The position numbers and the translations under genes were made by a program. Below are positions 1,501 to 55,512 of a stretch of 64,000 bases of DNA, piece after piece. Below the pieces are notes generated by a model, which saw only the letters and a list, made by a program, of their open reading frames with translations, was not told the origin of the DNA and did not search any database. Position 1 is the first letter of the stretch, and each line of letters starts with the position of its first letter. Location: the NCBI RefSeq assembly GCF_056746865.1, contig NZ_CM163382.1; one strand, given 5' to 3'.

Positions 1501-1674
1501 ACGTGTAAAAAATGAGTGTCAGTAAGGAGTTACGCTTTCATGAGGGAGATGGCGGATGCCGGAAACCCGGGCGGTAGCGTACCTGAAAATGTAAAGATGA
1601 GTGTAACGCTGCACTGGCACCCTTTGCTGCATGGTAAGAATCATTTGGTCCGTGAATAAATCAGGGAGGTCATT

Positions 1675-4472: not shown

Positions 4473-4493
4473 AAAGACAAACGGATAGATTAT

Positions 4494-6065: not shown

Positions 6066-6131
6066 GTGATATTACAGAAATTAAAAGTGAACAGTATAAT
6101 GAGTATTTTCCCCTTTTGAGAGAGAATAATT

Positions 6132-7142
6132 ATGAAGGCAAAACATTTAATATCGGTTATTTTACTGTCAGGAGTTGTTATGGGAACTGGATTTTGCTCT
6201 AACGATAACCAGCAAAAAATTCGCAGTAAGTTTAATATTGAAGAGTCATATTGTGCCATTAAGACTAATGGCGTCCTCGGGTTCAGTAACCGAAGAAGTG
6301 CCTGGCGGGCAAATGGTGATTCAACCGGGGCCATATCCAGCACCAATGCCATGATGCTGATGGCGAATGGAGAAAATGAAATCAGTCTGGAGATTGGGGC
6401 ATTAGGATGGTTTTCTGACAAGCCTGCCAGTATGGAAGAACGGGGGCGTTTTTTTCCAAAAGCAGGATGCAGCCTGGATTTGGTTCGTTTTATTAAACAG
6501 GAGGAAACGCTGCTTTCTTCAATAAAAGTGACCATCAACCAGCAGGGCATACCTGAAGCCCGGCCAGACAGCGTGCATCCCGTTATCCGGAAAGAGATTT
6601 TGGCTGAGCAGGCGGAGCCAGGATTTATTGATCCAGATTATTTTGATGAAACCTATTTCCCGAAAGGGATGAAGGTGTATCAGTTCACTCAAAAAGTTAC
6701 CGTGACAGGGCTTCCTGAATGGGCCTGGACGCGGGCAACCCCCTATACCGGAAGCGACGAGCAGTTACGGAAGTTAAAAGCCGCCTATACCGAAATGGCA
6801 AGCATCATCAGTAGCCGGGACAGGGCACGTCTGAAAGCTTATAACAAAGAGGCGCTGAAGGCATGGTCAGCCACAACCGGTGACTCTGAGGATGACATAT
6901 TACTCTCACTCTTCTCAAAAGATAATGTGGAGGGAGGGAAAGCCAGAATGCAGCCCATCAGGTGGGACGATTATGCCGTCCGGGTTATGAATGGTGGACG
7001 TATGGTGCAGCTATATAATAAATCGAAACCAATATATTCCCCACTGACTTACCGTTTTACAGATGAAAGTGGTGAAGAGCGTATGGGGTATTACGCTCCG
7101 GTATTTTCGCTGATTGATGGTCAGTTTATCCCTGTTACTTGA
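6132..7142 (+). CDS. Candidate cognate immunity protein, secreted or lipoprotein
   Basis: 336-aa ORF with N-terminal signal peptide MKAKHLISVILLSGVVMGTGFC (lipobox-like Cys); position directly after the candidate effector. Confidence 0.4.
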   Translation: MKAKHLISVILLSGVVMGTGFCSNDNQQKIRSKFNIEESYCAIKTNGVLGFSNRRSAWRANGDSTGAISSTNAMMLMANGENEISLEIGALGWFSDKPASMEERGRFFPKAGCSLDLVRFIKQEETLLSSIKVTINQQGIPEARPDSVHPVIRKEILAEQAEPGFIDPDYFDETYFPKGMKVYQFTQKVTVTGLPEWAWTRATPYTGSDEQLRKLKAAYTEMASIISSRDRARLKAYNKEALKAWSATTGDSEDDILLSLFSKDNVEGGKARMQPIRWDDYAVRVMNGGRMVQLYNKSKPIYSPLTYRFTDESGEERMGYYAPVFSLIDGQFIPVT

Positions 7143-7172
7143 TTAACCTGTTGGGCTACAAATCAGGATGTC

Positions 7173-7216
7173 CGGTAAGGTGATTATTACTGAGTTAAGC
7201 ACCTTACCGTTTTTTA
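7173..7216 (+). terminator. Rho-independent terminator closing the hcp–vgrG–effector unit
   Basis: Stem cggtaaggtg / caccttaccg followed by TTTTTT. Confidence 0.5.
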
Positions 7217-8379
7217 AATTTTTTGTCGCTGATATTCCAGACAGGAAAACAATATGCCTTTAGCTGCCAGATTAAACGACAAAGGTACCGGCACAGGGAA
7301 AGATCACGTAACGCTGCTTTTTTGTACTAAATAATTCGCATTTTATGTTTAAAATTTGAGATATTCCTCATTACCTGAGGCTGTTTTTTATTACTTATAC
7401 ATGATCAAATACTCCTTACATAATTAAGGGGAACAAAATGGAACTTAAAAATTGATGGAACATATTTCTGTTATTCCCGATTACAGACAAGCCTGGAAAG
7501 TGGAACATAAATTGTCGGATATTCTACTGTTGACTATTTGTGCCGTTATTTCGGGTGCAGAAGGTTGGGAAGATATAGAGGATTTTGGGGAAACACATCT
7601 CGATTTTTTAAAACAATACGGTGATTTTGAAAATGGTATTCCTGTTCACGATACCATCGCCAGAGTTGTATCCTGTATCAGTCCTGCAAAATTTCACGAG
7701 TGCTTTATTAACTGGATGCGAGATTGCCATACTTCAGATGATAAAGACGTCATCGCAATTGATGGAAAAACGCTCCGGCACTCTTATGACAAGAGTCGCC
7801 GCAGGGGAGCGATTCATGTCATTAGTGCGTTCTCAACAATGCACAGCCTGGTCATCGGACAGATCAAGACGGATGAGAAAACCAATGAGATTACAGCTAT
7901 CCCAGAACTTCTTAACATGCTGGATATTAAAGGAAAAATCATCACAACTGATGCGATGGGTTGCCAGAAAGATATTGCAGAGAAGATACAAAAACAGGGC
8001 GGTGATTATTTATTCGCTGTAAAAGGAAATCAGGGGCGGCTTAATAAAGCCTTTGAGGAAAAATTCCCACTGAAAGAATTAAATAATCCAGAGCATGACA
8101 GTTACGCAATGAGTGAAAAGAGTCACGGCAGAGAAGAAATCCGTCTTCATATTGTTTGCGATGTCCCTGATGAACTTATTGATTTCACGTTTGAATGGAA
8201 AGGACTGAAGAAATTATGCGTGGCAGTCTCCTTTCGGTCCATAATAGCAGAACAAAAGAAAGAGCCAGAAATGACGGTCAGATATTATATCAGTTCTGCT
8301 GATTTAACCGCAGAGAAGTTCGCCACAGCAATCCGAAACCACTGGCACGTGGAGAATAAGCTGCACTGGCGTCTGGACG

Positions 8380-10270
8380 GTGTGCCGCAGGAACACAAGA
8401 TAGCTGCATAAGGATACGCAGTTAGCTTTTGTATAAGCTCATAAAGAGATGGTGGAAGGCCCACCGGGATCGGCTGTCGGAAGCAGATTCCAAACCACTT
8501 CATGCTGCTGTGGTAAAGAGCCATGGTAGTGAGCGATGAAGTAAAGCGTGAGTGAAAACTCAGCAGGTAAGATACTCATGAGACGAGTGAACCCGAACCC
8601 ATGTTGACGCGTCGTAAACCAGAGACTGACATCAAAACCGAAGGGGCGTCCAGCCTTCGGGATAAGTCTGCGAGTGAATTCCGAATGCTGCGCAGACGGT
8701 GTCCGGCGTAAAGTGGGCGTGACGGAGTATCAGGCTCTTCCTGGGAACTGCGGGAACCTGTCGTTGTGATGATAAGGGAGAAATGCAAGTCACTGAATTG
8801 GCGAGCATGAAAGTACCGATGCACAGCACAGGGACGGAGCCGTTCGTAGTAGTGATGAAGCTTCTGTAATGGAGGTGGAGCGAAGGGGCGGCATCAGACA
8901 GTCTTTGGACAGTGTTCAACTGAACATGTTCAGGAGGAGACAATGACAAAGACAAAAGCGTTTAACATTGATAAGTCACTGGTGGTCAGCGCGTACAGGC
9001 GAGTGAAGACCAGTGCAGGCGCGGCGGGAATTGATAAGCAATCGCTGGCGGACTTTGATAAACGGTTAGTTGATAATCTGTACAAAATCTGGAACCGACT
9101 TTCTTCAGGAAGTTATTTCCCACCGGCAGTGAAAGCGGTGGCAATTCCGAAGAAATTGGGTGGAGAGAGAATTCTGGGTATCCCGACAGTCAGCGATCGT
9201 ATCGCGCAGACGGTGGTAAAACTGGCCTTTGAGCCACAGGTTGAGCCACATTTTCTGGCAGACTCTTACGGCTACAGACCGAATAAATCGGCACTGGATG
9301 CTATAGGGGTAACGCGTAAGCGTTGCTGGTATTACGACTGGGTACTGGAATTTGACATCAAAGGGCTGTTCGATAACATCCCGCACGAACTGATAATGAA
9401 AGCCGTGGACAAACACAATCCGGCCCGGTGGGTAAAATTGTATATACAGCGGTGGCTGACAGCGCCGATGGTGATGTCAGACGGAGAAGTCAGAGCACGA
9501 ACAATGGGAACGCCGCAGGGAGGTGTCATAAGTCCGTTGCTGGCAAACCTGTTCATGCATTATGTGTTTGATAAATGGCTGGCAAAATATTATCCGAAAG
9601 TGCCGTGGTATCGATATGCTGATGATGGCATTTTGCATTGTCACAGCGAAGCAGAAGCGACTGAAATGCGAGAAGTATTACGCAAAAGATTTAGCGAATG
9701 CGGACTGGAAATGCATCCGGAGAAAACGCGAGTTATCTACTGCAAAGATGGAAGCCGGAAGGGTGATTATGAACATACCATGTTCGACTTTCTGGGGTAC
9801 ACATTCAGGCGACGCGTAGTAAAGAACGTTAAGCGAAACAGTCTGTTTGTAAGTTTTACCCCCGCAGCGAGCAAATCAGCGCTAAAGGCAATGCGTCGGG
9901 AAATCAAAGCGACAGGGATAAGGAAAAGAGTGGATTTAAGCATTGAGCAGATAGCGAAATGGATAAATCCAAAACTGAATGGCTGGATAAATTATTACGG
10001 GCGATATACCTGTTCGGAATTATACAGCGTGTTCAGATATATCAATAAAGCACTGGTGAGGTGGGGGCGTAAGAAATATAAAATGCTCAGCCGATACAAG
10101 ACAAGAGCCTCAAAATTTCTGGAAGAAATGGCGAAGCGAAGTCCACAGTTGTTTGCCCACTGGCGTCTGAAGATGAGAGGCGGACTTGTTTGATGGGAGC
10201 GGTATGAGCCGAGAGGTTCACGTACCGTTCTGCGAGAGGCTGCGGGGGAGGTTCCTGCGGCCTACTCACC
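8380..10270 (+). mobile_element. Group II intron (bacterial, with RT/maturase ORF)
   Basis: Boundaries from aligning interrupted copy 1 to uninterrupted copy 2: shared …cgtctggacg | intron starts GTGTGCCG … ends …cctactcacc | tggtaatgaatg resumes. Domain V-like GAGCCG…CGTACCGTTC lies just after the RT stop. Confidence 0.7.
8943..10193 (+). CDS. Group II intron-encoded reverse transcriptase/maturase
   Basis: 416-aa ORF with RT motifs (…RYADDG… YADD box) and a maturase X-domain motif (NGWINYYG). Confidence 0.85.
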
Positions 10271-10493
10271 TGGTAATGAATGAAGACGACTGCAAAATAA
10301 GAAGAGGAAATGCAGCAGAATTATTTTCAGGGATACGGCACATCGCTATTAATATTTTGACGAATGATAAGGTATTCAAGGCAGGGTTAAGACGTAAGAT
10401 GCGAAAAGCAGCCATGGACAGAAACTATCTGGCGTCAGTCCTTGCGGGGTGCGGGCTTTCGTAATCTTTCCCTGGATGTGAAAAGCAGCTGCG

Positions 10494-11779
10494 GACAGGG
10501 AAAGATCATCAGAAGTACACTTTTTGTACTAAACAATTCGCATTTTATGTTTAAAAATTGAGATATTCCTCATTACCTGAAGCTGTTTTTTATTGCTTAT
10601 ACATGATCAAATACTCCTTACATAATTAAGGAGAACAAAATGGAACTTAAAAAATTGATGGAGCATATTTCTATTATCCCCGATTACAGACAAGCCTGGA
10701 AAGTGGAACATAAATTATCGGATATTCTACTGTTGACTATTTGTGCCGTTATTTCTGGTGCAGAAGGTTGGGAAGATATAGAGGATTTTGGGGAAACACA
10801 TCTCGATTTTTTGAAGCAATATGGTGATTTTGATAATGGTATTCCTGTTCACGATACCATTGCCAGAGTTGTATCCTGTATCAGTCCTGCAAAATTTCAC
10901 GAGTGCTTTATTAACTGGATGCGTGACTGCCATTCTTCAGATGATAAAGACGTCATTGCAATTGATGGAAAAACGCTCCGACACTCTTATGACAAGAGTC
11001 GCCGCAGGGGAGCGATTCATGTCATTAGTGCGTTCTCAACAATGCACAGCCTGGTCATCGGACAGATCAGGACGGATGAGAAATCTAATGAGATTACAGC
11101 TATCCCTGAACTTATTAACATGCTGGATATTAAAGGAAAAATCATCACAACTGATGCGATGGGTTGCCAGAAAGATATTGCAGAGAAGATACAAAAACAG
11201 GGAGGTGATTATTTATTCGCTGTAAAAGGAAACCAGGGGCGGCTAAATAAAGCCTTCGAGGAAAAATTTCTGCTGAAAGAATTAAATAATCCAGAGCATG
11301 ACAGTTACGCAATTAGTGAAAAGAGTCACGGCAGAGAAGAAATCCGTCTTCACATTGTTTGCGATGTCCCTGATGAACTTATTGATTTCACGTTTGAATG
11401 GAAAGGTCTGAAGAAATTATGCGTGGCAGTCTCCTTTCGGTCAATAATAGCAGAACAAAAGAAAGAGCCCGAAATGACGGTCAGATATTATATCAGTTCT
11501 GCTGATTTAACCGCAGAGAAGTTCGCCACAGCAATCCGAAACCACTGGCACGTGGAGAATAAGCTGCACTGGCGTCTGGACGTGGTAATGAATGAAGACG
11601 ACTGCAAAATAAGAAGAGGAAACGCAGCAGAATTATTTTCAGGGATACGGCACATTGCTATTAATATTTTGACGAATGATAAGGTATTCAAGGCAGGGTT
11701 AAGACGTAAGATGCGAAAAGCAGCCATGGACAGAAACTACCTGGCGTCAGTCCTTGCGGGGAGCGGGCTTTCGTAATCT
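10494..11779 (+). mobile_element. H-repeat (ISAs1-family) element copy 2, intact
   Basis: Left IR acagggaaagatca and right IR tcttgccctg; direct orientation, about 20 bp after copy 1. Confidence 0.75.
10640..11776 (+). CDS. H-repeat-associated ISAs1-family transposase
   Basis: 378-aa [35 protein letters not shown]… uninterrupted. Confidence 0.85.
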
Positions 11780-11895
11780 TGCCCTGGTACAGTAAACAAA
11801 CGAAAGTTGTTATTTCAATGGTCAGGGCAAGAGCATGAAGTGTTTACTACACACTATGCTCTTGTCCTGGAGTCAGGTCTTGTTTGGAGGGATAA

Positions 11896-12399
11896 ATGGT
11901 AGATATTGTCGAGGCCGATAAAACGGATATTTATTTCATTCAGGAGAGTGTTTATGGCAAAATCGGGTTGCCAGCTTTTGGTAATACAATAGGACCATCC
12001 GCACAGCAAGTTGTTAAAAAGGTATTCGCTGTCGTTAAAGAACGAGATAAGACACATGCAAAACAGAGATTATTGTTGGAATATAATGGTAACAAACTCT
12101 GGATGAATGCTATTGATGGCAGTGAAGCTATCCTACCAACAGAATTTTCTAAGCGATACGAACTTTCATTATTTAATACTACTAATTTTGGAGAAGATCC
12201 TTTTCCTGATGTTAATTTATATAATAATATGAAATCAAGTTTTTTTGTAAGGTTTGGTGGAACATCCCATCCCGAGGCTTGGGCTATTTATAATGCAAGT
12301 ACGAAAGAGGTTAAATATATAGAAACTGCAAGAGAAATTGATAAAATATTCAGTGATTTTAACTTGAGTGGTACATTGCCAATTCACATTGGTCGATGA
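11896..12399 (+). CDS. Hypothetical protein, AT-rich cargo
   Basis: 167-aa ORF in a low-GC segment between H-repeat elements; no recognisable motif. Confidence 0.35.
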   Translation: MVDIVEADKTDIYFIQESVYGKIGLPAFGNTIGPSAQQVVKKVFAVVKERDKTHAKQRLLLEYNGNKLWMNAIDGSEAILPTEFSKRYELSLFNTTNFGEDPFPDVNLYNNMKSSFFVRFGGTSHPEAWAIYNASTKEVKYIETAREIDKIFSDFNLSGTLPIHIGR

Positions 12400-12465
12400 T
12401 TTTTTAAATTGTGTGATTAAATAATTGAACATTAATGATGATTTATAGCATTATTATTCTATAAC

Positions 12466-12978
12466 ATGAATAAACGGATTGAATGTGTTATGTTAAAAAT
12501 AAGTTTATACGTAATAATATTGTTATTTTCCTTTCAGATTAGTGCAGCCATTACTAGCAAGGAAAGTGAGGTTGTTTCACCATTATTAATGGATGTTAAT
12601 TCTTCACTAACAATGGAAAATATTTCTGAATTATCCACATCATCGGAACCATCGCAACAGGGGGTATTTCCTGTAATATGTACTCGACTTCATCCTGGCT
12701 CCGTAATGAAACGCCAGTTATTAACCGGCTGGGGGCCTGTTTTTATAATTGGTGATGATCCTTTTTCTCTGCGCTGGATGAGTGAACATCTGGAGATCCT
12801 TAAATCGCTAAATGCCCTTGGTTTGGTTGTTAATGTTGAATCAGTAGAACGAATGGAGGTATTACAGCAGCGGGCTGATGGGTTATTGTTATTGCCAGTT
12901 ATCTGCGATAATTTCGTGCAAACTCTGCAATTAAATGCTTATCCGGTATTAATCACAGAGATGGAAATATCACAATGA
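12466..12978 (+). CDS. Hypothetical secreted/membrane protein
   Basis: 170-aa ORF with a hydrophobic N-terminal segment (ISLYVIILLFSFQISAAITS); low GC. Confidence 0.35.
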   Translation: MNKRIECVMLKISLYVIILLFSFQISAAITSKESEVVSPLLMDVNSSLTMENISELSTSSEPSQQGVFPVICTRLHPGSVMKRQLLTGWGPVFIIGDDPFSLRWMSEHLEILKSLNALGLVVNVESVERMEVLQQRADGLLLLPVICDNFVQTLQLNAYPVLITEMEISQ

Positions 12979-12994
12979 TTAATAACATAATTAC

Positions 12995-13215
12995 TGCAAA
13001 TAATATCGTAATTTTGAAAATGGTAATTCTGTTCACGGCACCATAATTAGAGTTATGTCTTGTATCCGTTCAGTATAATTTCACGAATGCTTTATTAACT
13101 GGATGCGAGATTGCCATTCATCAAATGATAAAGACGTCATCGCAATTGATGGAAAAGCGCTTCCACACTCCTATGATAAAAGTGGTCGCAGGGGAGCGGG
13201 CTTTCGTAGTCTTAG
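12995..13215 (+). pseudogene. Internally deleted H-repeat transposase remnant (position equivalent to K-12 yafF)
   Basis: Matches the ENGIPVH…[10 protein letters not shown]…SRRRGA segment, then jumps to the element 3' end (…ggagcgggctttcgtagtct…); junction at a short ggggagcg microhomology. Confidence 0.6.
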
Positions 13216-20862: not shown

Positions 20863-21360
20863 ATGTCTGAATATCGTCGTTATTACATCAAGGGGGGAAC
20901 ATGGTTTTTCACGGTAAATTTACGGAATCGTCGAAGCCAACTTTTGACCACCCAGTACCAGACACTCCGTAACGCCATTATTAAAGTTAAGCAGGCCAGA
21001 CCTTTTGAAATTAACGCCTGGGTAGTTTTGCCAGAGCATATGCACTGTATCTGGACATTACCCGAAAGTGATGATGATTTTTCCTCTCGCTGGCGGGAGA
21101 TTAAAAAGCAGTTCACCCATGCTTGCGGATTGAAAAATATCTGGCAACCGCGTTTTTGGGAGCATGCCATTCGCAATACAAAAGATTATCGCCATCATGT
21201 TGATTATATTTATATAAATCCAGTGAAACATGGCTGGGTAAAGCAGGTGAGTGATTGGCCATTCTCAACGTTCCATCGCGATGTAGCGCGAGGGTTATAT
21301 CCCATTGATTGGGCGGGAGACATAACGGATTTTAGTGCCGGGGAGCGTATTATTTTATAA
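20863..21360 (+). CDS. rayT: REP-associated tyrosine transposase RayT (YafM)
   Basis: 165-aa ORF MSEYRRYYIKGGTWFFTVNLRNRR…; IS200/IS605-like HuH fold; flanked by REP elements. Confidence 0.85.
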   Translation: MSEYRRYYIKGGTWFFTVNLRNRRSQLLTTQYQTLRNAIIKVKQARPFEINAWVVLPEHMHCIWTLPESDDDFSSRWREIKKQFTHACGLKNIWQPRFWEHAIRNTKDYRHHVDYIYINPVKHGWVKQVSDWPFSTFHRDVARGLYPIDWAGDITDFSAGERIIL

Positions 21361-21510: not shown

Positions 21511-23050
<1,540 letters not shown>

Positions 23051-28077: not shown

Positions 28078-28445
28078 GGTGCCAGGTCGTTGATATCGCG
28101 GGTGTTAAACTCCAGCACGCGCAGGCCGTACTTCTCGTTGACCACCACCACTTCTGCTTTGCCCAGCAGGATATTGTTCACTTTAATATCCAGCGGCTCC
28201 CCGGCGAGTTTATCCAGCTCAATCACCGTGTCGTCGTCGATGTTTAGCAGGTCGGCTAACATAATTTCCACCGACGACACTTCCAGCGTTAAGGTCACCG
28301 GAATGCGTTTCAACAGCGTCATCGAGTCGGAAAAGCGGTCTTCCAGGCGGGTGACCAGCGTTTCAGCGTCGGCGGATTTCGCGACAGGCGCAACTTCATC
28401 GGTGAGGCCAAAATCCCCGGCTAAAATATCTTCTTGCTTACTCAT
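28074..28445 (-). CDS. lfiN: Flag-2 C-ring protein FliN homolog
   Basis: Start MSKQEDILAGDF… overlapping the fliM stop; C-terminal SpoA-type domain. Confidence 0.8.
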   Translation of the reverse strand: MSKQEDILAGDFGLTDEVAPVAKSADAETLVTRLEDRFSDSMTLLKRIPVTLTLEVSSVEIMLADLLNIDDDTVIELDKLAGEPLDIKVNNILLGKAEVVVVNEKYGLRVLEFNTRDINDLAP

Positions 28446-29289
28446 GGCTATTCTCATTTTTGCCCGCCAGCTCCGACAAAAACAGTTTGTCTTTGTCTTC
28501 CACAATCAGGGCGCTAAATAATTCAGATTGCCCAATCGCCACCGGGAACGTTTCTCCCAGCGAGATGGGTAAAATATCCCCGGCTTTTATCTGCGTGAGA
28601 TCCGCGACATTCAGCGACAGCTCGGCGATTTTGACGTTCAGGGTCAGCGGCAGGGAGCGGATGATTTCTTTAATCAGGGCCGGTTTATTAACGGATTTCG
28701 CCACCTGCTGCGGTTTACTGTGCTCGCTGTGGCGGATCAGATTCAAAATAAAATCGGTGTGGGCGTCGTCGAGCAAAATACGAAAACTGCTCTCTTCATC
28801 GTCCGCAAGGGTAAAGGTTAATTGATACGCCCAGTGGGTAATCACCGTGCTGCTGTCCAGTTTTAATTTCAGCGCAATACCGGAGGTTTGCAGATTAAAT
28901 ATCAGCGTGCAGATATCCAGCGCCAGACGGTTTTTTAAACGCGTTTCGGTTTTGGTCGGCAACCCGTTATGGGCTTTCGCCTCTTCAAGAGACGACTCCA
29001 GACCATAAAAATTGCCCAGCAGCATTAACAATAAGGAGCGATCAATATCAAACGCCAGATGCCCGACCTGGGAAACCATCAGTTCGGCGTTTTTATTAAT
29101 AATATCCATTTCGCAGCCAATCTTTTTTAAGGTGATATTGCTGCGATGCTTTTTGAGAAAGTAGCTGCCAAGATGCGAATCAATCACGTCAAAATTCCCC
29201 GTAAACAGGGTCGGCAGGCGATGGTAGGGGCGTCCGAGCCGATTACCTTCTAATTTAAAGATGCCTGGCGTTTTACTGTACTTCAGCAT
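28438..29289 (-). CDS. lfiM: Flag-2 C-ring protein FliM homolog
   Basis: 283-aa ORF; position and FliM-like content. Confidence 0.8.
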   Translation of the reverse strand: MLKYSKTPGIFKLEGNRLGRPYHRLPTLFTGNFDVIDSHLGSYFLKKHRSNITLKKIGCEMDIINKNAELMVSQVGHLAFDIDRSLLLMLLGNFYGLESSLEEAKAHNGLPTKTETRLKNRLALDICTLIFNLQTSGIALKLKLDSSTVITHWAYQLTFTLADDEESSFRILLDDAHTDFILNLIRHSEHSKPQQVAKSVNKPALIKEIIRSLPLTLNVKIAELSLNVADLTQIKAGDILPISLGETFPVAIGQSELFSALIVEDKDKLFLSELAGKNENSHE

Positions 29290-29440
29290 GGCTTACTTTC
29301 TCTGCTGTAATGGTATGGGTGTTTCTGTGCACGCAAATCCGGCTGTGACACAAGGTGAGGTATTAAATAGAGGGGGAGTGAAAGGGGCAAATTATTAATA
29401 GGGTGAAGATATAATTAAATTATTAATGGGTGATATATCA

Positions 29441-29552
<112 letters not shown>

Positions 29553-29676
29553 GCATGTAACTGGTTGTTTAATAACAATTAATATTTTTATTATCGTTTA
29601 ATTCGAACTTGTTAATCCCGCCGGTGATACGCTTCAGAACATCCTGATTAATGTCGCTACTTATATCGTTCACCCT

Positions 29677-30657
29677 ATGTCTGAACTTATTGCAACTGCC
29701 GCTTCCAGCATTAACGCTTTTACTCTGGCAAAGCGTGTCGCCGCATTTAACGTGCCGGTGCTCATTCAGGGCGAAACCGGTGCGGGCAAAGAGTGCGTGG
29801 CGAAATATATTCACTCCGTAGCCTTTGGTGAAAACGCGCCCTATATCGGCGTGAACTGCGCGGCGATCCCGGAAAATATGCTGGAAGCGACCTTATTTGG
29901 CTACGACAAAGGCGCATTTACCGGCGCAATTGCCAGCGTACCAGGCAAAATGGAACTGGCGAATAACGGCACCTTATTGCTCGATGAAATTGGCGATATG
30001 CCGCTGGCGCTACAGGCCAAAATATTACGCGTATTGCAGGAACAGCAGGTTGAGCGATTAGGCAGTAACCGACAAATTAAACTCAATTTTCGCCTGATTG
30101 CCTGCACCAATAAAAACCTTGAGCAGGAAGTCGCCGCCGGGCGTTTTCGTGAAGATCTCTATTATCGTCTGGCGGTTATTCCTATTACCATGCCGCCGCT
30201 GCGTGAACGCCTGAACGATATTATCCCGCTGGCAGAGTCATTTATTAAAAAATACTCCACAGTGCTGGTGAAAAATATCACCCTTTCAGAATCTACTCGC
30301 CGGGCGCTGCTCAATTACCGCTGGCCCGGCAACGTGCGCCAGCTGGAGAACGCCATTCAGCGTGGAATGATTTTAAATCGCGACGGCGTGATTTTCCCGG
30401 ATGCCTTAGGCCTGCCGGAAATAGACGTTGCCGATCACAGTGAACTGCAATGGCCTGTTCAGCCCTCCGTATCTGTTGCGGAAACCAGCGATTTAGGCCA
30501 GGCCGGACGTAGCGCCCAGTATCAATATATCGCCGACCTGATGCGTAAATATCAGGGCAACCGCAGCAAAATTGCCGACCTGTTAGGCATTACCCCGCGC
30601 GCACTGCGCTATCGACTGGCCTCCATGCGCAAGCAAGGTATCGAAGTTTTCTCCTGA
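29677..30657 (+). CDS. lafK: Sigma-54-dependent transcriptional activator LafK (AAA+ plus HTH, no receiver domain)
   Basis: 326-aa ORF beginning in the sigma-54 interaction domain (Walker A GETGAGKE, GAFTGA) with a C-terminal Fis-type HTH. Confidence 0.85.
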   Translation: MSELIATAASSINAFTLAKRVAAFNVPVLIQGETGAGKECVAKYIHSVAFGENAPYIGVNCAAIPENMLEATLFGYDKGAFTGAIASVPGKMELANNGTLLLDEIGDMPLALQAKILRVLQEQQVERLGSNRQIKLNFRLIACTNKNLEQEVAAGRFREDLYYRLAVIPITMPPLRERLNDIIPLAESFIKKYSTVLVKNITLSESTRRALLNYRWPGNVRQLENAIQRGMILNRDGVIFPDALGLPEIDVADHSELQWPVQPSVSVAETSDLGQAGRSAQYQYIADLMRKYQGNRSKIADLLGITPRALRYRLASMRKQGIEVFS

Positions 30658-30671: not shown

Positions 30672-31013
30672 ATGAGCATTACCACAATCAACAGCACCAT
30701 GCAGGCGCAAATCATGCAGGACGTGCAGCGGATGCAGGCCAACGCCCAGGCACCGGTGCTGCCCGCCATGACCTTCAGTTCCACCGACCCGGACGTTTCG
30801 TTTAACCGCATTATGTCCGGCGCGCTCGGTCACGTTGACCAGTTCCAGCAGGTGGCGGAGCAGCAGCAAACAGCTATCGACACGGGCAAAAGTGATGATT
30901 TAGCAGGTGCGATGATCGCCAGCCAGCAGGCGTCGCTCTCTTTCTCCGCGCTGGTGCAGGTGCGCAACAAAATCGCCACCGGATTTAACGATCTGATGAG
31001 TATGTCGATCTAA
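30672..31013 (+). CDS. lfiE: Flagellar hook–basal body protein FliE homolog
   Basis: 113-aa ORF; FliE-like size and position before fliF. Confidence 0.8.
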   Translation: MSITTINSTMQAQIMQDVQRMQANAQAPVLPAMTFSSTDPDVSFNRIMSGALGHVDQFQQVAEQQQTAIDTGKSDDLAGAMIASQQASLSFSALVQVRNKIATGFNDLMSMSI

Positions 31014-39332: not shown

Positions 39333-40262
39333 TCACGTCAGCAGCGAAAACGCTGAAAGCAGCGGCTCTGCCGCACATAACGACTGAATTTGCTGGCGAA
39401 TCGACGCAGCATTTTCACTCTCTCGCCAGCGTTCAAACACCGCAAAAAGGGCGAAAATATCCTCCTGTCGCAGCGGTGAACCATCCAGCGTCCATAAACT
39501 GATTAACGTGCGGATAAGATAAAAATCGCACACCAGCGGGCAATAATCTGCTCCGTCTGCCTGCCCAATCACCTCATGGTAAACGCGGTAAATCAGCCAG
39601 TTACGCATCATCCAGGGCGCGGTAGCAAAATGCTGTTGCCAGGTGGTTTGCCACTGTGCCTGAAGCTGATGTTGTAACAGGGCTTCGCTGTTGGCGTCAT
39701 GTAGCGCCAGCAAAGGCATCTGCAACGGCAGCGAAGTTTTGCGCGGGCTTTCCGGCAAAATCGACCAGTCAAACGCACAACTGCCGAGCAGCGTCATCAA
39801 CTGGCGCGCCAGTTGTGGCACGGGCGGCAACTGGGCGAACTGTGCCTGTAGCGTGCCTTTTTTCGCATGATCGGCCAGCGCCTGCGGCAGCGTCGTCAAA
39901 CGGGCAAGAATATCTCCGTCTCTGCCCGGCATTTTACTGGCGCGGGAGAGTAAAATCCCGATGGCATACAGGGAAAGCTCTGGGGTTAAATCGGGGAGCG
40001 TGAGGGTACTCAAAATCACCTGGTTTACTATCGCATCGCGCGCGGAAAGCTCTGCGGCATTTTCTTCCACAGGACGGTAGGTGAGCTGTAAATCAAAGGC
40101 CCTGGCATCGTTGAGTACCGCTTCGCAGCTGGCTGGCTCTGTCAGCATCAGGCTCTGGCGAATCTCGTTTTTCCACACCTTGCGGATGTACAAAGGCGAA
40201 TCGGGATATTGCGTCATAAAATTGCGCACGTATTCCGGTTCGTAACATTCAATAAAACTCAT
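39333..40262 (-). CDS. Hypothetical protein in the lfgA–lfgM–lfgN transcription unit
   Basis: ORF 39333..40301; probable start MSFIECYEPEYV at 40262 preceded by GGAAG. No recognisable motif. Confidence 0.45.
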   Translation of the reverse strand: MSFIECYEPEYVRNFMTQYPDSPLYIRKVWKNEIRQSLMLTEPASCEAVLNDARAFDLQLTYRPVEENAAELSARDAIVNQVILSTLTLPDLTPELSLYAIGILLSRASKMPGRDGDILARLTTLPQALADHAKKGTLQAQFAQLPPVPQLARQLMTLLGSCAFDWSILPESPRKTSLPLQMPLLALHDANSEALLQHQLQAQWQTTWQQHFATAPWMMRNWLIYRVYHEVIGQADGADYCPLVCDFYLIRTLISLWTLDGSPLRQEDIFALFAVFERWRESENAASIRQQIQSLCAAEPLLSAFSLLT

Positions 40263-40388
40263 AGGTGGCTTCCAGTCTTTATTACTTTGCGGAATATGCA
40301 ATAAGCGTGCCGGGAATTTTTATAATCAAAAACAAAGGATTGTGAATCAGGCGGAAAATCCGTTTCCGCTATGGGGAAGGTGTTCGCG

Positions 40389-41188: not shown

Positions 41189-41926
41189 TTACTCCGCGCT
41201 TACCGTCGTCACCACGCCGCTTTCCGCCACCATCGCGCTGATGACCCGCTGGCTGCTGGCGTTACGCACTTTCACCATCTCGCCTTTGCGACCATTTTTC
41301 AGCGCCACGCCGGGCATCGAGGCGGTGATCCCCGCGCTCTGGTAAACAATCATCACCGGCTGATCGCGTTCGACCAGCACTGGCGAAACCAGCTCTTCTT
41401 TGGTGATGGGCCTGCCCGGTTGCAGCGCGTGTTTACTGCTGAAACCAATCGCGTCATCGGGATCCATCAACACATTGCGGCGCTGGGCGCTGACGTTGTA
41501 GGGCTTCAACTCCACATCATTTGCCGTGAGCGGCGTGTCGCGGGCAACCAGTGACTTCGCCATTACCACCGGCACCAGAACATCCGGGCGCACCGCCACG
41601 TTCATCTGCCAGCTTTGCGGGCAACTGACGGTGAAGTTCATCCGGTTGAGGGTGATTTCCGCAGGCGAAGTGAGCGTGACGCCGGGTGTAGTCGCACAGG
41701 GGGCGGCGGTCGCAATCTGCGAGGGAATATAGACCTTAAAGGTGTAGCGATAGTCATGCCAGCGCCGCTGTTGCGCCAGCGATTCAATTTCCTGGCTCGC
41801 GGCATTTAGCACCTGGGCGTTGACTTGTTCCCGCGCGCTGTGTTGCACGGGGTGGACGGCGGCGTAGCCCGGTAAGGCCAGCACCAGGAGGAAGAACAAC
41901 TTCCGCCTGCAAAATTGAAAACTCAT
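41189..41926 (-). CDS. lfgA: Flagellar P-ring assembly chaperone FlgA homolog
   Basis: 245-aa ORF with signal peptide and FlgA-like C-terminal region. Confidence 0.8.
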   Translation of the reverse strand: MSFQFCRRKLFFLLVLALPGYAAVHPVQHSAREQVNAQVLNAASQEIESLAQQRRWHDYRYTFKVYIPSQIATAAPCATTPGVTLTSPAEITLNRMNFTVSCPQSWQMNVAVRPDVLVPVVMAKSLVARDTPLTANDVELKPYNVSAQRRNVLMDPDDAIGFSSKHALQPGRPITKEELVSPVLVERDQPVMIVYQSAGITASMPGVALKNGRKGEMVKVRNASSQRVISAMVAESGVVTTVSAE

Positions 41927-41955: not shown

Positions 41956-41971
41956 TGGCACGGCGATTGCT
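41956..41971 (+). promoter_or_regulatory. Sigma-54 (-24/-12) promoter upstream of lfgB
   Basis: TGGCAC GGCGA TTGCT, exact TGGCAC-N5-TTGC match, about 37 bp upstream of the lfgB ATG. Confidence 0.7.
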
Positions 41972-51335: not shown

Positions 51336-52313
51336 ATGCAGGTCGGACTTACATCTTCGTCACTCGCCACCGGCGGCGCGCATAGCGCTGCGGTATCGTC
51401 GTCAACCGTTGCGCCCACTCAGGCGGTGCGGCAAAAACTCCCGGCGACGGCGAGTGAATATCCGGCCTCGCCGCTGATTACCACTCGCCCGCAGCGTTAC
51501 AGCGTGCAGCTTAACGACCAGCTCACCACGTTGCAGCAGGCGGATCACTATCTCGGGCAACTGGAGCAGCAGTTGCTCGATTATCGTCACAGCCAGCGCA
51601 AAGGCGGGCAGGCGCAGAGTTCGGCGCTGATGCAGATGCTGGACAAACGCACCGCGCTTTCCGGCGGTGCGGTGGACCGCCAGTTGCAGCCAGTGTTGCA
51701 GGGGGAAGCGCGGGTGACTTTTCACTCGCCGGATCTGGCGAATCTGGTACACAATCCCACGCCGGGAACGCGCATGTTCAGCGTCTCTGACGGGCGGCAG
51801 ACTCAGCTTTCGGCGGTGATGCTGTCTGAGGATGACAGCGCTGGGCAGTACCAGACGCGGCTGACCAACGCCCTGCGCCGCGTGGGCGTGCAGATGCATC
51901 AAAACGCCGATGGTATAAGTTTCTCCACCACTGAAAAACAGTGGCCCAACATTGAAAGCACCCTAAGCGTGCGCACCGATGGTGATAAATCAGCGTTTAT
52001 GCCACTAAAAACCTTTGCCGAACCGTCGCAGGCGGACCGCTTAGTGCAAAGCCTGCAACAGGGCGGAGCGGGGATTTCTCAGACGTTAGAAAGCATTAAT
52101 CAGCAGCGTGTGCAGATGGCGGTACAGCAGGAAAAGGCGCGGCAGTTGATCGACGGCATGTCGCGCTTCCCGCAAACGGAAAGCGCCGTGCAGGCGTCGG
52201 AAAATCTCGGCGGCGTGCTGGATAGCGCCAATCATAACTATCAGGTTTTATTGCAGGCGGTGAACGGTCAGGCGCGAATTTCCAGCCAGACGGTGAGGAG
52301 TTTATTGGGTTAG
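51336..52313 (+). CDS. lafW: Lateral-flagellar protein LafW-like (function uncertain)
   Basis: 325-aa ORF after flgL; assignment by position in the Flag-2 gene order. Confidence 0.5.
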   Translation: MQVGLTSSSLATGGAHSAAVSSSTVAPTQAVRQKLPATASEYPASPLITTRPQRYSVQLNDQLTTLQQADHYLGQLEQQLLDYRHSQRKGGQAQSSALMQMLDKRTALSGGAVDRQLQPVLQGEARVTFHSPDLANLVHNPTPGTRMFSVSDGRQTQLSAVMLSEDDSAGQYQTRLTNALRRVGVQMHQNADGISFSTTEKQWPNIESTLSVRTDGDKSAFMPLKTFAEPSQADRLVQSLQQGGAGISQTLESINQQRVQMAVQQEKARQLIDGMSRFPQTESAVQASENLGGVLDSANHNYQVLLQAVNGQARISSQTVRSLLG

Positions 52314-52385: not shown

Positions 52386-52730
52386 ATGATGTGGGACGTC
52401 GAGACAACGGAGACTTTCGACAACTGGTTTGATGCCCAGACTGTTGCGCTGAAAGAAGATTTACTTGCTGCAATGCTGATTCTTGCTGAGTATGGCCCAC
52501 AGTTGGGCAGACCCTTTGCGGATACGGTTAATGATTCACAGTTTTCAAATATGAAAGAATTACGCGTCCAACATCAGGGAAACCCGGTACGTGCTTTTTT
52601 TGCTTTCGATCCTGCGCGCCGTGGCATTGTATTATGTGCGGGTGATAAAACGGGGTTAAATGAGAAAAAGTTTTATCGCGATATGATCAAGCTCGCTGAT
52701 TCTGAATACCGTAAGCATCTGAAAAAGTAA
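52386..52730 (+). CDS. Type II toxin, RelE/ParE superfamily (HigB-like)
   Basis: 114-aa ORF MMWDVETTETFDNWFDAQ…GNPVRAFFAFDPARRGIVLCAGDKTG…, the toxin class usually encoded upstream of an HTH antitoxin. Confidence 0.7.
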   Translation: MMWDVETTETFDNWFDAQTVALKEDLLAAMLILAEYGPQLGRPFADTVNDSQFSNMKELRVQHQGNPVRAFFAFDPARRGIVLCAGDKTGLNEKKFYRDMIKLADSEYRKHLKK

Positions 52731-52739
52731 GGAACGATA

Positions 52740-53039
52740 ATGGCTACTCTAAAAGAACTGATGGCAAAGCAAAGCCCTGAAAGCCAGGTGCGTATTGCGG
52801 CAAAAGTTGAGGAAATGCGCCAGACCATCGCCTTGCATCAGCTGAGAGAAGAACTCAATATTTCGCAAACGGAAATGGCGGCAGCGATGGGCATTAAGCA
52901 ACCGACTCTTGCAAAAATGGAGCAGGCAGATAACGATCCTCGGTTGTCTACGCTAAAACGCTATGTTGCGGCTTTAGGTGGGGAATTGAGTATCGACGTT
53001 AAACTGCCGAATGGTAAGAGAATTGCATTTCAGATTTAA
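52740..53039 (+). CDS. HTH (XRE-family) antitoxin, HigA-like
   Basis: 99-aa ORF 10 bp after the toxin; HTH segment LNISQTEMAAAMGIKQPTLAKME. Confidence 0.7.
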   Translation: MATLKELMAKQSPESQVRIAAKVEEMRQTIALHQLREELNISQTEMAAAMGIKQPTLAKMEQADNDPRLSTLKRYVAALGGELSIDVKLPNGKRIAFQI

Positions 53040-53096: not shown

Positions 53097-53990
53097 TCAG
53101 CATTTCTGCACAGTATTTAACAACTTCTCTAAATTCTGATACATCGCGCTATTAATATCGCTATTCTGCCAGCTATCCACATTAAAAGTTAATTGCCAGC
53201 TACCGTTGCACTGGTTGCGCAGAACAATATCACTCTCCAGTCGGTTACGAACATATTTATAATAGGTTGTCATTGTCATATTATGCGCTGACAATAAATT
53301 ATCGAGTTTGTCTTTTCCTGGTGCGAGGGTTTGTGACAGTAACGGTACGGAATTATTTTCCTTTCCAGAACTAAGATGAAATATTTTTATTCTTGGACTG
53401 TTAATTGACTCTTTTACCAGTTGCGGGGCGTCAGGTGTACTTTTCAAGTGTGAATACCCCACGGTTGAGCCAACCAATATAACAGCTGCGGCCAACGCTA
53501 ACCCCATCAGTCCTTTATGTTTTTTTCTAACAGGCACATACGGTGTTGTCGAAGATATCTCTTCTGGGGCTGTATCCTGTATCTGGTCGGTAATAATCAG
53601 CGCTTCTGCAGGCGATGACTCCGGCAAAGACACATACTCTTTATTGCATAAGTAACCTTTCTTCGGAATTGTTTTAATAATGTTCTGTTGTTTGCCATCA
53701 TCGTCGATAGCAACGCGCAACGCATGGATCGCCGTCGGCAGGCTGTTTCCGCCGACAATACGGTTCTTCCATACTTCGGCACATAAATAAGATCGCGATA
53801 AAACCACATCGGCATTTTTTGCTAATGTTTCCAGCAAAATAAAATGGTATTCGCCGAGACGACGTGTTTCACCCGTTTCGCAATGTATTAAGGCATTAAG
53901 CGACGGGTCCATCCGCCAGTTGTTGATAATAATACTCATAGTTGAGTTTACCTTAGCAAGGGATAAATGTTTCCTGATAGTGCTTTGCAT
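53097..53990 (-). CDS. lafZ: ToxR/CadC-like membrane-anchored transcriptional regulator (LafZ-like)
   Basis: 297-aa ORF: N-terminal winged-helix OmpR/PhoB-type DNA-binding region, a single TM segment (GLMGLALAAAVILVGSTVGY) and a C-terminal periplasmic part. AT-rich. Confidence 0.6.
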   Translation of the reverse strand: MQSTIRKHLSLAKVNSTMSIIINNWRMDPSLNALIHCETGETRRLGEYHFILLETLAKNADVVLSRSYLCAEVWKNRIVGGNSLPTAIHALRVAIDDDGKQQNIIKTIPKKGYLCNKEYVSLPESSPAEALIITDQIQDTAPEEISSTTPYVPVRKKHKGLMGLALAAAVILVGSTVGYSHLKSTPDAPQLVKESINSPRIKIFHLSSGKENNSVPLLSQTLAPGKDKLDNLLSAHNMTMTTYYKYVRNRLESDIVLRNQCNGSWQLTFNVDSWQNSDINSAMYQNLEKLLNTVQKC

Positions 53991-55432: not shown

Positions 55433-55496
55433 CGCCAGAACGGAAACGTCATTTCCGCCTGTTTTTCAATCTATTGATTATTCACATAAAAAATAT

Positions 55497-55512
55497 TGGC
55501 ACGCCTTTTGCC
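55497..55512 (+). promoter_or_regulatory. Sigma-54 (-24/-12) promoter upstream of lafB (fliD)
   Basis: TGGCAC GCCTT TTGCC, exact TGGCAC-N5-TTGC match, about 32 bp upstream of the lafB ATG. Confidence 0.7.

Follow-up and report, generated by a model that had tools for sequence, protein, structure and literature searches.

The short, receiver-less LafK of the Escherichia coli Flag-2 locus: domain architecture, orthologs and candidate regulon

The LafK protein encoded in the complete E. coli Flag-2 (lateral flagellar) locus begins at its AAA+ domain and has no receiver, and comparison with its relatives indicates that this short form is the standard one in enterobacteria, not a local truncation or a peculiarity of the window (the whole 64-kb stretch of DNA that was analysed). 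In the explanation that best covers the evidence as a whole, to which we assign a probability of about 65%, LafK would be a sensor-less enhancer-binding protein controlled mainly by its amount.

The absence of a receiver from E. coli LafK is in itself already known and ordinary, because the short protein is the conserved normal form of enterobacteria and has been noted previously. According to the Flag-2 literature, the gene name lafK goes back to the original account of the system in strain 042, and the architecture of its product is evident from any domain scan; the finding alone is of little weight. However, the names used in the databases are inconsistent ('response regulator LafK' in Aeromonas versus 'sigma-54 interaction domain-containing protein' in E. 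coli), and the proteins so named truly differ by a whole domain, a contrast between enterobacterial and Aeromonas/Vibrio LafK that we did not find spelled out in the accessible literature. No experiments on any enterobacterial LafK were found in the searchable literature.

Domain architecture of LafK

The gene and the domains and motifs of its product are located as follows:

29677..30657, plus strand: lafK coding sequence, 326 aa plus stop (ORF list, PGAP and Pfam)
29692..30186, plus strand: sigma-54 interaction (AAA+) domain, residues 6-170 (PF00158, Sigma54_activat, E 1.7e-64)
29770..29793, plus strand: Walker A, GETGAGKE, residues 32-39 (found by motif search in the translated ORF)
29911..29928, plus strand: GAFTGA sigma-54 contact loop, residues 79-84
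30202..30408, plus strand: AAA+ lid (AAA_lid_14), residues 176-244 (PF25601, E 1.1e-19)
30520..30621, plus strand: Fis-type helix-turn-helix (HTH_8), residues 282-315 (PF02954, E 7.3e-09)

The same start was assigned by PGAP in the 100%-identical strain 118UI, where the product is WP_001292195.1, 'sigma-54 interaction domain-containing protein'. An earlier, sequence-only reading of this DNA had described an ORF that begins directly in the AAA+ domain and ends with an HTH, and had proposed HMM annotation as a check. Pfam bears this out, revealing a full AAA+ domain, a lid and HTH_8, and no match to Response_reg (PF00072) anywhere in the protein. The Sigma54_activat match covers positions 3-167 of the 168 in the profile, hence the domain is complete from its first positions.

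The Walker A motif starts exactly at residue 32 and the GAFTGA loop at residue 79, in good agreement with the approximate positions (32 and 80) given before. G32, G35, G37, K38 and E39 are invariant in both of our alignments (A1 and A2), as are G79, A80, T82 and A84 of the contact loop, while G83 is invariant in A2 and nearly so in A1, and a few relatives have Y instead of F81. Walker B was identified by motif search on the translation as DE 103-104, and the residues tested as arginine fingers, R158, R164 and R221, are invariant across the 17-sequence alignments. The region around the HTH exhibits a C-terminal motif with the consensus AEFQYI...G.T.RALRY[RK]LA.MR..GI, common to the Vibrio and Aeromonas LafK proteins in alignment A2, with AQYQYI in E. 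coli at the position of AEFQYI. LafK thus possesses the complete sigma-54 AAA+ domain, with GAFTGA, Walker A and B and arginine fingers, that characterizes enhancer-binding proteins. On the other hand, it starts at the AAA+ boundary and lacks the receiver of the NtrC-class response regulators, and no histidine kinase is annotated anywhere in the Flag-2 locus.

The region upstream of lafK

The neighbourhood of lafK comprises the following elements:

28438..29289, minus strand: lfiM (FliM-like switch protein), annotated as the first gene of the divergent lfiMNPQR-lfhBA operon
29290..29676, no strand: non-coding gap of 387 bp between the divergent lfiM and lafK genes
29387..29420, no strand: AT-rich block A, kept in E. 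coli and Citrobacter, with TATAAT at 29410-29415
29437..29555, no strand: BIME of two opposed REP elements (E. coli genome matches, hairpin arms)
29572..29640, no strand: AT-rich, lafK-proximal block B, kept in E. coli and Citrobacter
30672..31013, plus strand: lfiE (FliE), after lafK and separated from it by 14 bp

The gap had been described as 386 bp of non-coding DNA with REP elements and no room for a receiver domain in any frame. Its non-coding nature and the REP elements were borne out, and only the length had to be corrected, to 387 bp. The longest stop-free stretch in the six frames is 60 codons; compared with about 115 aa for a receiver, this makes the gap too short for such a domain, as claimed. 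In the frame of lafK, the first stop is reached 26 codons before the ATG, and the intervening codons include no start. No obvious Shine-Dalgarno sequence precedes this ATG.

All but one of the complete E. coli genomes (5425 of 5426) contain matches to the repeat at about 29437-29555, with a median of 28 matching places per genome, which confirms its identity as REP/BIME; the hairpin of the first REP is formed by the arms 29458-29471 and 29474-29487. Comparison of Citrobacter and Escherichia revealed that the BIME is present in Escherichia only, being absent from the aligned Citrobacter gap, and that it is flanked by the two conserved blocks. Block A, in the region of which there is a direct repeat AAATTATTAAT.GG, may be a candidate part of the lafK or the lfiM promoter/operator, and block B is a candidate promoter/operator region of lafK. 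A sigma-70 scan of the gap revealed no consensus promoter, and the 387 bp contain neither a sigma-54 site within 2 mismatches nor a copy of the GGAAR-N5-YTTCC palindrome described below. Two other candidates for the lafK promoter were rejected: AGGCAAGGTGTTGCA at about 29541, because of wrong spacing, and a near-sigma-54 sequence in block B of Citrobacter, because it is not kept in E. coli.

The short form in enterobacteria

Among the matches listed, the full-length enterobacterial orthologs are 324-365 aa long, share the same start region and are all free of a receiver; they have been identified in Escherichia, Citrobacter, Leminorella, Atlantibacter, Scandinavium, Budvicia, Pantoea, Hafnia, Regiella and Erwinia. 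This count is based on full-length calls within the 120 closest protein clusters, the exceptions being shorter partial calls, downstream fusions (P0009, P0011) and three long homologs with REC or ACT domains (P0051, P0066, P0077). The latter were rejected as chimeric metagenome assemblies joined at the conserved FREDLYYRL motif, whose N-termini correspond to E. coli NtrC, TyrR or an unrelated regulator. A search of the representative library returned orthologs intermixed with NtrC-type paralogs at 45-52% identity, hence it cannot by itself set the boundary of the family. The conserved mark of LafK orthologs is the adjacency of lafK and fliE, and in E. coli, Citrobacter and Hafnia alike lafK is immediately followed by fliE and transcribed divergently from fliM.

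In at least 15 enterobacterial genera the start of LafK is either identical or preceded by 11-20 unrelated residues, and no ortholog was found in which a hidden upstream exon or an alternative start, as envisaged in the sequence-only reading, restores a receiver. The gaps upstream of lafK measure 387 bp in E. coli, 594 bp in Citrobacter and 641 bp in Hafnia; inspection of their six frames, in two alleles in the case of E. coli, revealed no ORF longer than 74 codons. When eleven receiver sequences were compared by tblastn with the DNA upstream of lafK in four enterobacterial loci, in search of receiver remnants, only noise was obtained (best E 0.07 in a tiny database). These data bear on the idea that the receiver is only apparently missing, either because the start is mis-called or because a REP insertion has split the gene and left its 5' part elsewhere. 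The Vibrio and Aeromonas orthologs are indeed about 120 aa longer and the gap does contain mobile REP DNA, but there are stops in all frames, Citrobacter and Hafnia have the same short gene without any REP, and the annotation of the Flag-2 locus shows no separate receiver gene; we regard this idea as effectively refuted.

For lafK, dN/dS amounts to 0.035 in the comparison with Citrobacter and to 0.07 for a pair of E. coli alleles, which points to strong purifying selection. A decaying gene, inactive or irrelevant in a cryptic E. coli Flag-2 that is on its way out, is therefore a very unlikely interpretation. It would agree with the presence of Flag-2 in just 1270 of the 5426 complete E. coli genomes, with partial deletions, which are reported to be frequent in enterobacteria, with the frameshift in lfgC that reportedly inactivates the system in the reference strain 042, and with the missing clear ribosome-binding site at the ATG of lafK. 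However, the substitution ratios are far from neutral, all the catalytic motifs are intact and invariant, the short form and the promoter/palindrome pairs described below have been kept, the former over many genera, and the Flag-2 locus of the strain is free of pseudogenes in the PGAP annotation. Judged from the sequence comparisons, the short, receiver-less protein is the standard enterobacterial LafK.

Long forms of LafK in Vibrio, Aeromonas and Shewanella

Comparison with LafK orthologs, also suggested in the sequence-only reading, sets the short enterobacterial proteins apart from those of Vibrio parahaemolyticus, Aeromonas and Shewanella, which have 110-136 additional N-terminal residues and carry a degenerate receiver. 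V. parahaemolyticus LafK (P0487/P0495, 443-444 aa), which we take to be VPA1538, has about 122 extra, receiver-like residues of which there is no counterpart in E. coli, while the AAA+, lid and HTH domains of the two proteins are about 50% identical and the C-terminal motif is common to both. In the alignment, M1 of E. coli LafK falls on an internal Met of the Vibrio protein, at the border between its receiver and its AAA+ domain. As in E. coli, the Vibrio gene immediately precedes fliE in its lateral cluster and is divergent from fliM, but in the contig of the V. parahaemolyticus group motY_L, absent from the E. coli locus, is found between fliM_L and lafK. The literature describes V. parahaemolyticus LafK as the sigma-54-dependent master activator of lateral flagella. 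Its receiver-like domain scores 27.5 bits, below the Pfam cut-off of 30.2, the phospho-acceptor Asp (D54) is replaced by Ser, and the acidic pocket is absent.

LafK of A. hydrophila (P0334, 458 aa), named by NCBI 'lateral flagellar response regulator transcription factor LafK', exhibits 48% identity to E. coli LafK and the same output domains, but it has a 136-aa N-terminal receiver that E. coli lacks and that scores 31.1 bits, just over the Pfam cut-off. D54 and K104 are kept in this domain, while the acidic pair and T82 are absent. The gene is directly upstream of fliE_L as in E. coli, but it sits downstream of flhA and its flanking operon differs in direction. Shewanella LafK has N at D54, and neither the D11/D12 acidic pair nor T82 is kept by any of the Vibrio, Aeromonas and Shewanella N-termini. 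A profile of these N-termini matches receiver structures, including those of FleR, LuxO, CheY, DctD and NtrC1; the best solved match is 3luf, a response regulator/GGDEF protein, followed by the FleR receiver (7w9h, E 2.7e-13). P0153 (368 aa, in a motY-lafK-fliE context) was considered as a receiver-less LafK of the Vibrio type and rejected, since the gene call is truncated and the whole protein has 462 aa; this also contradicts a reading of Francke 2011 in which all LafK proteins are receiver-less.

The receiver-like N-terminal domain of the LafK group is thus absent from E. coli at the level of both the protein and the upstream DNA. By position and sequence the E. coli ORF is a true LafK ortholog; the alignments indicate that the receiver-like domain is a variable feature of the group, degenerate even in the long forms, and that the enterobacterial protein has lost a domain that was a pseudo-receiver beforehand. 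This suggests a stepwise decay, a scenario we advance tentatively, at somewhat less than even odds: the receiver would have passed from a near-canonical state with Asp, as in Aeromonas, through an Asp-less one, as in Vibrio and Shewanella, to complete absence in the ancestor of enterobacterial Flag-2. Control of lateral flagella would then have shifted wholly to the transcription of lafK, possibly via a ToxR-like regulator (LafZ, see below), leaving enterobacterial LafK as a natural, minimal, constitutively active enhancer-binding protein with a new operator, GGAAR-N5-YTTCCGCCTG, which may be placed in phase by one helical turn, 35 or 46 nt from the -24 element, and which would be defined here for the first time.

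Sigma-54 promoters and candidate LafK sites

This palindrome was found at the three best sigma-54 promoters of the window:

41890..41909, plus strand: palindrome GGAAGAACAACTTCCGCCTG, candidate LafK site of lfgB, 46-nt gap to the -24 element, kept in other genera
41956..41971, plus strand: sigma-54 promoter TGGCACGGCGATTGCT of lfgB, without mismatch, about 36 bp ahead of the start codon
55419-55438: weaker second copy of the palindrome at the lafB promoter
55442..55461, plus strand: palindrome GGAAACGTCATTTCCGCCTG, candidate LafK site of lafB (fliD), 35-nt gap
55497..55512, plus strand: sigma-54 promoter TGGCACGCCTTTTGCC, upstream of lafB/fliD
40348..40367, minus strand: palindrome GGAAACGGATTTTCCGCCTG, candidate LafK site of the third promoter, 35-nt gap
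40297..40312, minus strand: sigma-54 promoter CGGCACGCTTATTGCA, upstream of a gene for a 309-aa protein (39333-40262)

The lfgB promoter has been given for strain PCN033 too (PMC4578781), and the gene for the 309-aa protein is followed on the same strand by a GT2 glycosyltransferase gene. Within the 64 kb the exact sequence TTCCGCCTG occurs only three times, as does the perfect GGAAR-N5-YTTCC palindrome, and each perfect palindrome lies 35 or 46 nt upstream of a best sigma-54 match on the same strand. The -24/-12 promoters at 41956, 55497 and 40297 are accordingly all accompanied by candidate upstream sites, as in the case of targets of enhancer-binding proteins.

The Citrobacter and Hafnia loci, taken with 10-kb flanks, stop before lfgB, and conservation was tested by a pattern scan of a genome collection. 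In the genomes of 100,044 species, the palindrome plus TGGCAC yielded 28 matches; eight of these are enterobacterial, all located in Flag-2 loci in the lfgA/lfgB or lafA/lafB gaps. In a divergent Enterobacter (LfgA 41% identical) the arms of the palindrome and its spacing are kept while the intervening DNA differs. The variant with a 6-nt spacer gave only chance matches, the correct spacer being 5 nt. Position and conservation suggest that GGAAR-N5-YTTCCGCCTG is probably the binding site of LafK, and the conserved palindrome/promoter pairs represent a concrete candidate LafK regulon for enterobacterial Flag-2.

Control of LafK activity

Three further genes of the locus are relevant here:

53097..53939, minus strand: LafZ-like regulator, Trans_reg_C winged helix at residues 25-97, one predicted membrane span at about residues 142-165, ToxR/CadC-like
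39333-40262, minus strand: 309-aa protein without Pfam match
51336-52313: 325-aa protein without Pfam match

The sequence-only reading had predicted that LafK is constitutively active or controlled by another input, which is reasonable. In the mechanism that we favour, LafK would bind the palindrome through its HTH, assemble an active ring without a phosphorylation step, as PspF and HrpR/S do, and remodel the sigma-54 holoenzyme at the promoters of lfgB, lafB and the 309-aa/glycosyltransferase genes. Since LafK has no sensor domain, the amount made would be the main control point, and since lafK has neither a sigma-54 site nor a palindrome of its own, it would be read from a separate promoter in the AT-rich gap. 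Its transcription is possibly governed by the Flag-2-specific membrane regulator LafZ, a candidate upstream input, or by global regulators. Removal of the receiver makes NtrC1 and DctD constitutive and inactivates NtrC; as the outcome varies, the activity of LafK without a partner is something we infer.

Alternatively, LafK may be active by default and held in check post-translationally by a partner or a ligand acting on the AAA+ domain, in which case the other input would be a protein or a nucleotide rather than the transcription of lafK; this appears unlikely, though less so than decay of the gene. To our knowledge, all well-studied sensor-less activators have a dedicated partner. The models would be PspA with PspF, HrpV with HrpS, FleN or c-di-GMP with FleQ, and LafV with LafK, and a review reports that V. 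parahaemolyticus LafV represses surface genes when LafK is present; the conserved, Pfam-less 309-aa and 325-aa proteins are also encoded in Flag-2. However, no PspA-, HrpV-, FleN- or EAL-like gene appears in the annotation of the locus. Furthermore, two of the three c-di-GMP motifs of FleQ are presumably absent from E. coli LafK: what we take to be the counterpart of KExxxRN after Walker A reads KECVAKY, and the LFRS 'R-switch' would presumably fall upstream of residue 1. We favour control by the amount of LafK.

Comparison with other sigma-54 activators

The closest solved structure to LafK is the AAA+ domain of Vibrio cholerae FlrC (4qhs, E 1.7e-76). FlrC and Pseudomonas aeruginosa FleR are flagellar two-component activators of the canonical phosphorylated type, with FlrB and FleS respectively as cognate kinases, whereas LafK has no receiver and its locus no annotated kinase. 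FleQ and FleT of Rhodobacter sphaeroides resemble LafK in being sigma-54 activators that lack a receiver and whose genes immediately precede fliE; in the survey by Francke et al. 2011, FleT is described as having neither a signal domain nor a DNA-binding domain. In two loci (L006 and L007) we found two receiver-less activator genes in tandem before fliEFGHIJ, whose products exhibit 45-47% identity to E. coli LafK and, unlike LafK, would act as a pair; they presumably correspond to FleQ and FleT.

PspF of E. coli and the HrpR/HrpS proteins of Pseudomonas syringae, although more distant from LafK by sequence than FlrC and in charge of unrelated regulons, resemble it in having a C-terminal HTH and no receiver. 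They differ in having negative partners, PspA and HrpV, no counterpart of which was found in Flag-2. Residues 4-233 of LafK align with residues 8-239 of PspF, so that in both proteins the AAA+ domain lies near the first residues. The survey by Francke et al. groups LafK, PspF and HrpR/S as class Ic, without a signal domain, and in E. coli LafK we likewise find the AAA+ domain at the extreme N-terminus, an HTH and no signal domain.

Domain architecture and genomic context of lafK

The sequence-only reading held that the lafK ORF opens directly in the AAA+ sigma-54 interaction domain, ends with a helix-turn-helix (HTH) and lacks a receiver (REC) domain. Every element of this observation has been confirmed, including the absence of a receiver match upon HMM-based annotation of the 326-aa protein with Pfam:

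29677-30657 (+): lafK, 326 aa, same start in the PGAP annotation
LafK residues 6-170: sigma-54 interaction domain
LafK residues 176-244: AAA lid
LafK residues 282-315: Fis-type HTH

The sigma-54 interaction profile is matched over positions 3-167 of 168, which means that the AAA+ module is complete from its first positions, and the motifs GETGAGKE and GAFTGA, placed by the earlier reading at about residues 32 and 80, start at residues 32 and 79. The non-coding gap to lfiM, previously given as 386 bp, measures 387 bp and indeed has no room for REC in any frame, its longest open stretch being 60 codons; the first in-frame stop upstream of the lafK ATG is 26 codons away, with no start codon in between. 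The REP elements reported in this gap correspond to a repeat at about 29437-29555 (two opposed REPs, or BIME), which recurs dozens of times in nearly every E. coli genome, as REP/BIME DNA should. A hidden upstream exon or alternative start was looked for in the orthologs and not found, and a mis-called or split lafK is effectively excluded.

The window is part of an E. coli chromosome; its segment 29200-30700 (1.5 kb compared) is 100% identical to that of strain 118UI, and Flag-2 (lateral flagella), or at least the segment compared, is carried by 1270 of 5426 complete E. coli genomes. The locus is complete, bounded by rayT/IS3 and dinB, with no pseudogenes according to PGAP, and lafK is flanked by the divergent lfiMNPQR-lfhBA operon on one side and by lfiEFGHIJ on the other. 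Additional genes of the region include:

20863-21360 (+): rayT (REP-associated tyrosine transposase), directly outside the lfhA end of Flag-2
21519-22732 (-): IS3-family element, directly outside the lfhA end of Flag-2
52389-53039 (+): RelE/ParE-family toxin gene and HTH antitoxin gene, within Flag-2
53097-53939 (-): LafZ-like regulator, with an OmpR/ToxR-type winged helix followed by one predicted membrane span

RayT and the IS3-family element lie about 8 kb from the BIME, and the toxin/antitoxin pair is located between the gene of a 325-aa protein without a Pfam match (51336-52313) and that of the LafZ-like regulator. Outside Flag-2, positions 1-13200 of the window contain type VI secretion genes (tssB, hcp and vgrG, the last marked partial), ISAs1 remnants and a group II intron reverse transcriptase, and yafO at the right end has an internal stop.

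The short form in enterobacteria

Among the 120 closest protein clusters, full-length calls comprise 324-365 aa and have no receiver; the genera represented are Escherichia, Citrobacter, Leminorella, Enterobacter, Scandinavium, Pseudescherichia, Atlantibacter, Siccibacter, Budvicia, Paramixta, Pantoea, Hafnia, Regiella and Erwinia, and the other members are shorter partial calls and a few longer entries. Three entries with a REC or ACT domain (P0051, P0066 and P0077) were rejected as long LafK proteins: they are chimeric metagenome assemblies, in which the conserved stretch encoding FREDLYYRL connects lafK to an N-terminal half from E. coli NtrC (glnG), TyrR (tyrR) or an unrelated regulator, and they could mislead domain surveys. 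In another entry, from E. coli strain ECZU08 (P0009, 446 aa), lafK is frameshifted close to its 3' end, which fuses the frame to lfiE and takes away the HTH recognition helix.

Citrobacter and Hafnia lafK have the same gene neighbours as in E. coli, with upstream gaps of 594 and 641 bp, respectively, both AT-rich, free of REP and closed in all frames. A tblastn search with eleven receiver sequences against the regions upstream of lafK in E. coli, Citrobacter and Hafnia returned only noise. The receiver-less gene is the standard form and not a local truncation. Purifying selection on it is strong, dN/dS being 0.035 for E. coli versus Citrobacter and 0.07 for a comparison of two E. coli alleles; these values speak against lafK being a decaying remnant, which we consider quite improbable. 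The allele studied here is two residues shorter at LafK residues 51-54 (window 29830-29840; GENAPY versus GENDNAPY) than the commonest E. coli form of 328 aa (1606 members), and that of strain APEC37 has 325 aa. With a dS of 0.20, the two compared E. coli alleles have diverged strongly at synonymous sites, which suggests that they are old or imported.

A degenerate receiver in the long LafK forms

Francke et al. (2011), citing work on V. parahaemolyticus, grouped LafK with PspF and HrpR/S as activators without a signal domain. For the archetypal LafK, this is contradicted by the sequences of the Vibrio, Aeromonas and Shewanella forms. LafK has 443-444 aa in V. parahaemolyticus (gene order fliM_L / motY_L-lafK-fliE_L for a 444-aa member of its 90% cluster), 458 aa in A. 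hydrophila (flhA_L-lafK-fliE_L; named 'response regulator transcription factor' by NCBI), 445-455 aa in Photobacterium and 431-439 aa in Shewanella. E. coli LafK aligns with these long forms from the AAA+ boundary through the C-terminus at 48-50% identity, sharing the C-terminal motif AEFQYI...G.T.RALRY[RK]LA.MR..GI (AQYQYI in E. coli), and its Met1 falls opposite an internal Met of Vibrio LafK, right after the N-terminal domain.

This extra domain of 110-136 residues, absent from all enterobacterial proteins aligned, is by profile comparison a receiver homolog: among solved structures it matches the receivers of FleR (2.7e-13), LuxO, CheY, DctD and NtrC1. Its Pfam receiver score is 27.5 bits in V. 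parahaemolyticus, below the cut-off of 30.2, and 31.1, just above it, in Aeromonas. When ten long sequences were mapped against the NtrC receiver, neither the D11/D12 acidic pair nor T82 was found in any of them; D54 is replaced by Ser in V. parahaemolyticus and Photobacterium and by Asn in Shewanella, and is kept in Aeromonas, Ferrimonas and Gallaecimonas, and K104 is kept in Aeromonas and Gallaecimonas only. The domain is thus degenerate, and the enterobacterial lineage has lost what was already a pseudo-receiver. The 2011 survey classified proteins by detectable domains, and degeneracy is probably also the reason that it saw none in LafK.

Several database entries for long forms require care. 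P0153, a 368-aa call on a Vibrio marisflavi-like contig (L005 6001-7107), represents a 462-aa LafK that was annotated too short; the neighbouring flhA, flhB and fliF are broken into fragments, which suggests poor assembly or a decaying locus. The 90% identity cluster of P0446, which holds V. parahaemolyticus LafK, also includes many 340-aa MotY proteins; since the motY_L and lafK genes share 4 bp on contig L010, the two families may have been linked through fused gene calls.

Sigma-54 promoters and a candidate LafK operator

The three best sigma-54 matches within the window, the first two of which were already noted for strain PCN033 (PMC4578781), are each preceded on the same strand by a 20-bp palindrome:

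41956 (+): promoter, perfect match, about 36 bp before lfgB
55497 (+): promoter, one mismatch, before lafB/fliD
40297-40312 (-): promoter, one mismatch, before the 309-aa protein gene
39333-40262 (-): 309-aa protein gene, no Pfam match, with its own sigma-54 promoter and palindrome
41890-41909 (+), 55442-55461 (+) and 40348-40367 (-): palindrome GGAAR-N5-YTTCCGCCTG

The gene of an 823-aa GT2 glycosyltransferase follows the 309-aa gene on the same strand. Flag-2 loci conserve the 309-aa protein, with 43% identity in a divergent Enterobacter, and the two genes may form a flagellin-modification operon under LafK.

These are the only perfect copies of GGAAR-N5-YTTCC in the window, and the only exact copies of the 9-mer TTCCGCCTG, for which about 0.5 would be expected by chance on both strands. 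The distance to the -24 element is 46 nt for lfgB and 35 nt for both lafB and 40297, a difference of one helical turn. We scanned 100,044 species, one genome each, for the element followed by TGGCAC within 30-50 nt, and obtained 28 matches, with roughly a dozen chance matches estimated beforehand. Twenty have no -12 TTGC and are scattered across unrelated phyla, while all eight enterobacterial matches have the full -12 element and fall in lfgA/lfgB or lafA/lafB gaps of Flag-2 loci. The palindrome and its spacing are retained in Citrobacter, Pseudocitrobacter, E. whittamii and the divergent Enterobacter (loci L020, L027, L030, L034, L035, L037 and L039), and the third pair is conserved too in Pseudocitrobacter and E. 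whittamii. The divergent Enterobacter (LfgA 41% identical) retains the arms and the 46-nt spacing but not the sequence of the spacer or of the intervening DNA, a pattern expected for a protein-binding site. The palindrome is probably the LafK operator, for which it is the best candidate.

Control of lafK and a proposed mechanism

Neither a sigma-54 site nor a copy of the palindrome was found in the E. coli lfiM-lafK gap, nor a promoter-palindrome pair adjoining lafK in Citrobacter and Hafnia; LafK therefore appears not to activate its own expression in this way. A sigma-70 scan of the E. coli gap detected no lafK promoter. Two AT-rich blocks (29387-29420 and 29572-29640) are conserved with Citrobacter on both sides of a variable segment, which is the BIME in Escherichia. 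No Shine-Dalgarno sequence is evident before the ATG in E. coli (29660-29676) or Citrobacter (L012, just before 10001), which may indicate low or specially controlled translation; in Hafnia the start is preceded by AGAGG. The LafZ-like protein is a candidate upstream regulator within the Flag-2 locus.

Taking the observed architecture, orthology and conservation of LafK together with the promoter/palindrome pairs, we propose as the most likely mechanism that lafK would be transcribed from its own sigma-54-independent promoter, and that LafK would bind the palindromes with its HTH, form an active AAA+ ring without phosphorylation and open sigma-54 complexes at three operons (lfgB, lafB and 309-aa/glycosyltransferase). 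Late genes, lafA among them, would then be driven by lafS, the sigma-28 gene located downstream of lafB. By analogy to PspF, HrpR/S and receiver-deleted NtrC1 and DctD, we infer that LafK is constitutively active and controlled through its expression level. However, NtrC is inactivated by deletion of its receiver, so this reasoning is not safe; control by a partner protein or ligand is an alternative that we regard as unlikely.

Comparison with known systems

E. coli LafK is a bacterial enhancer-binding protein that belongs to the LafK orthologous group, and not a response regulator. The observation holds but is ordinary: the gene has long been known, this is its standard form, and earlier literature already describes 'LafK' as having no signal domain; only the explicit contrast with the Vibrio/Aeromonas pseudo-receiver and the candidate operator are new here. 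By architecture, E. coli LafK groups with PspF and HrpR/S, and the closest solved AAA+ domain is that of V. cholerae FlrC. Receiver-less activators directly upstream of fliE occur elsewhere too: two loci, one from a metagenome contig and one from a Steroidobacteraceae genome, encode tandem sigma-54 activators without a Pfam receiver match directly upstream of fliEFGHIJ (L006 5312-7011 and L007 4663-7038), an arrangement reminiscent of Rhodobacter FleQ/FleT.
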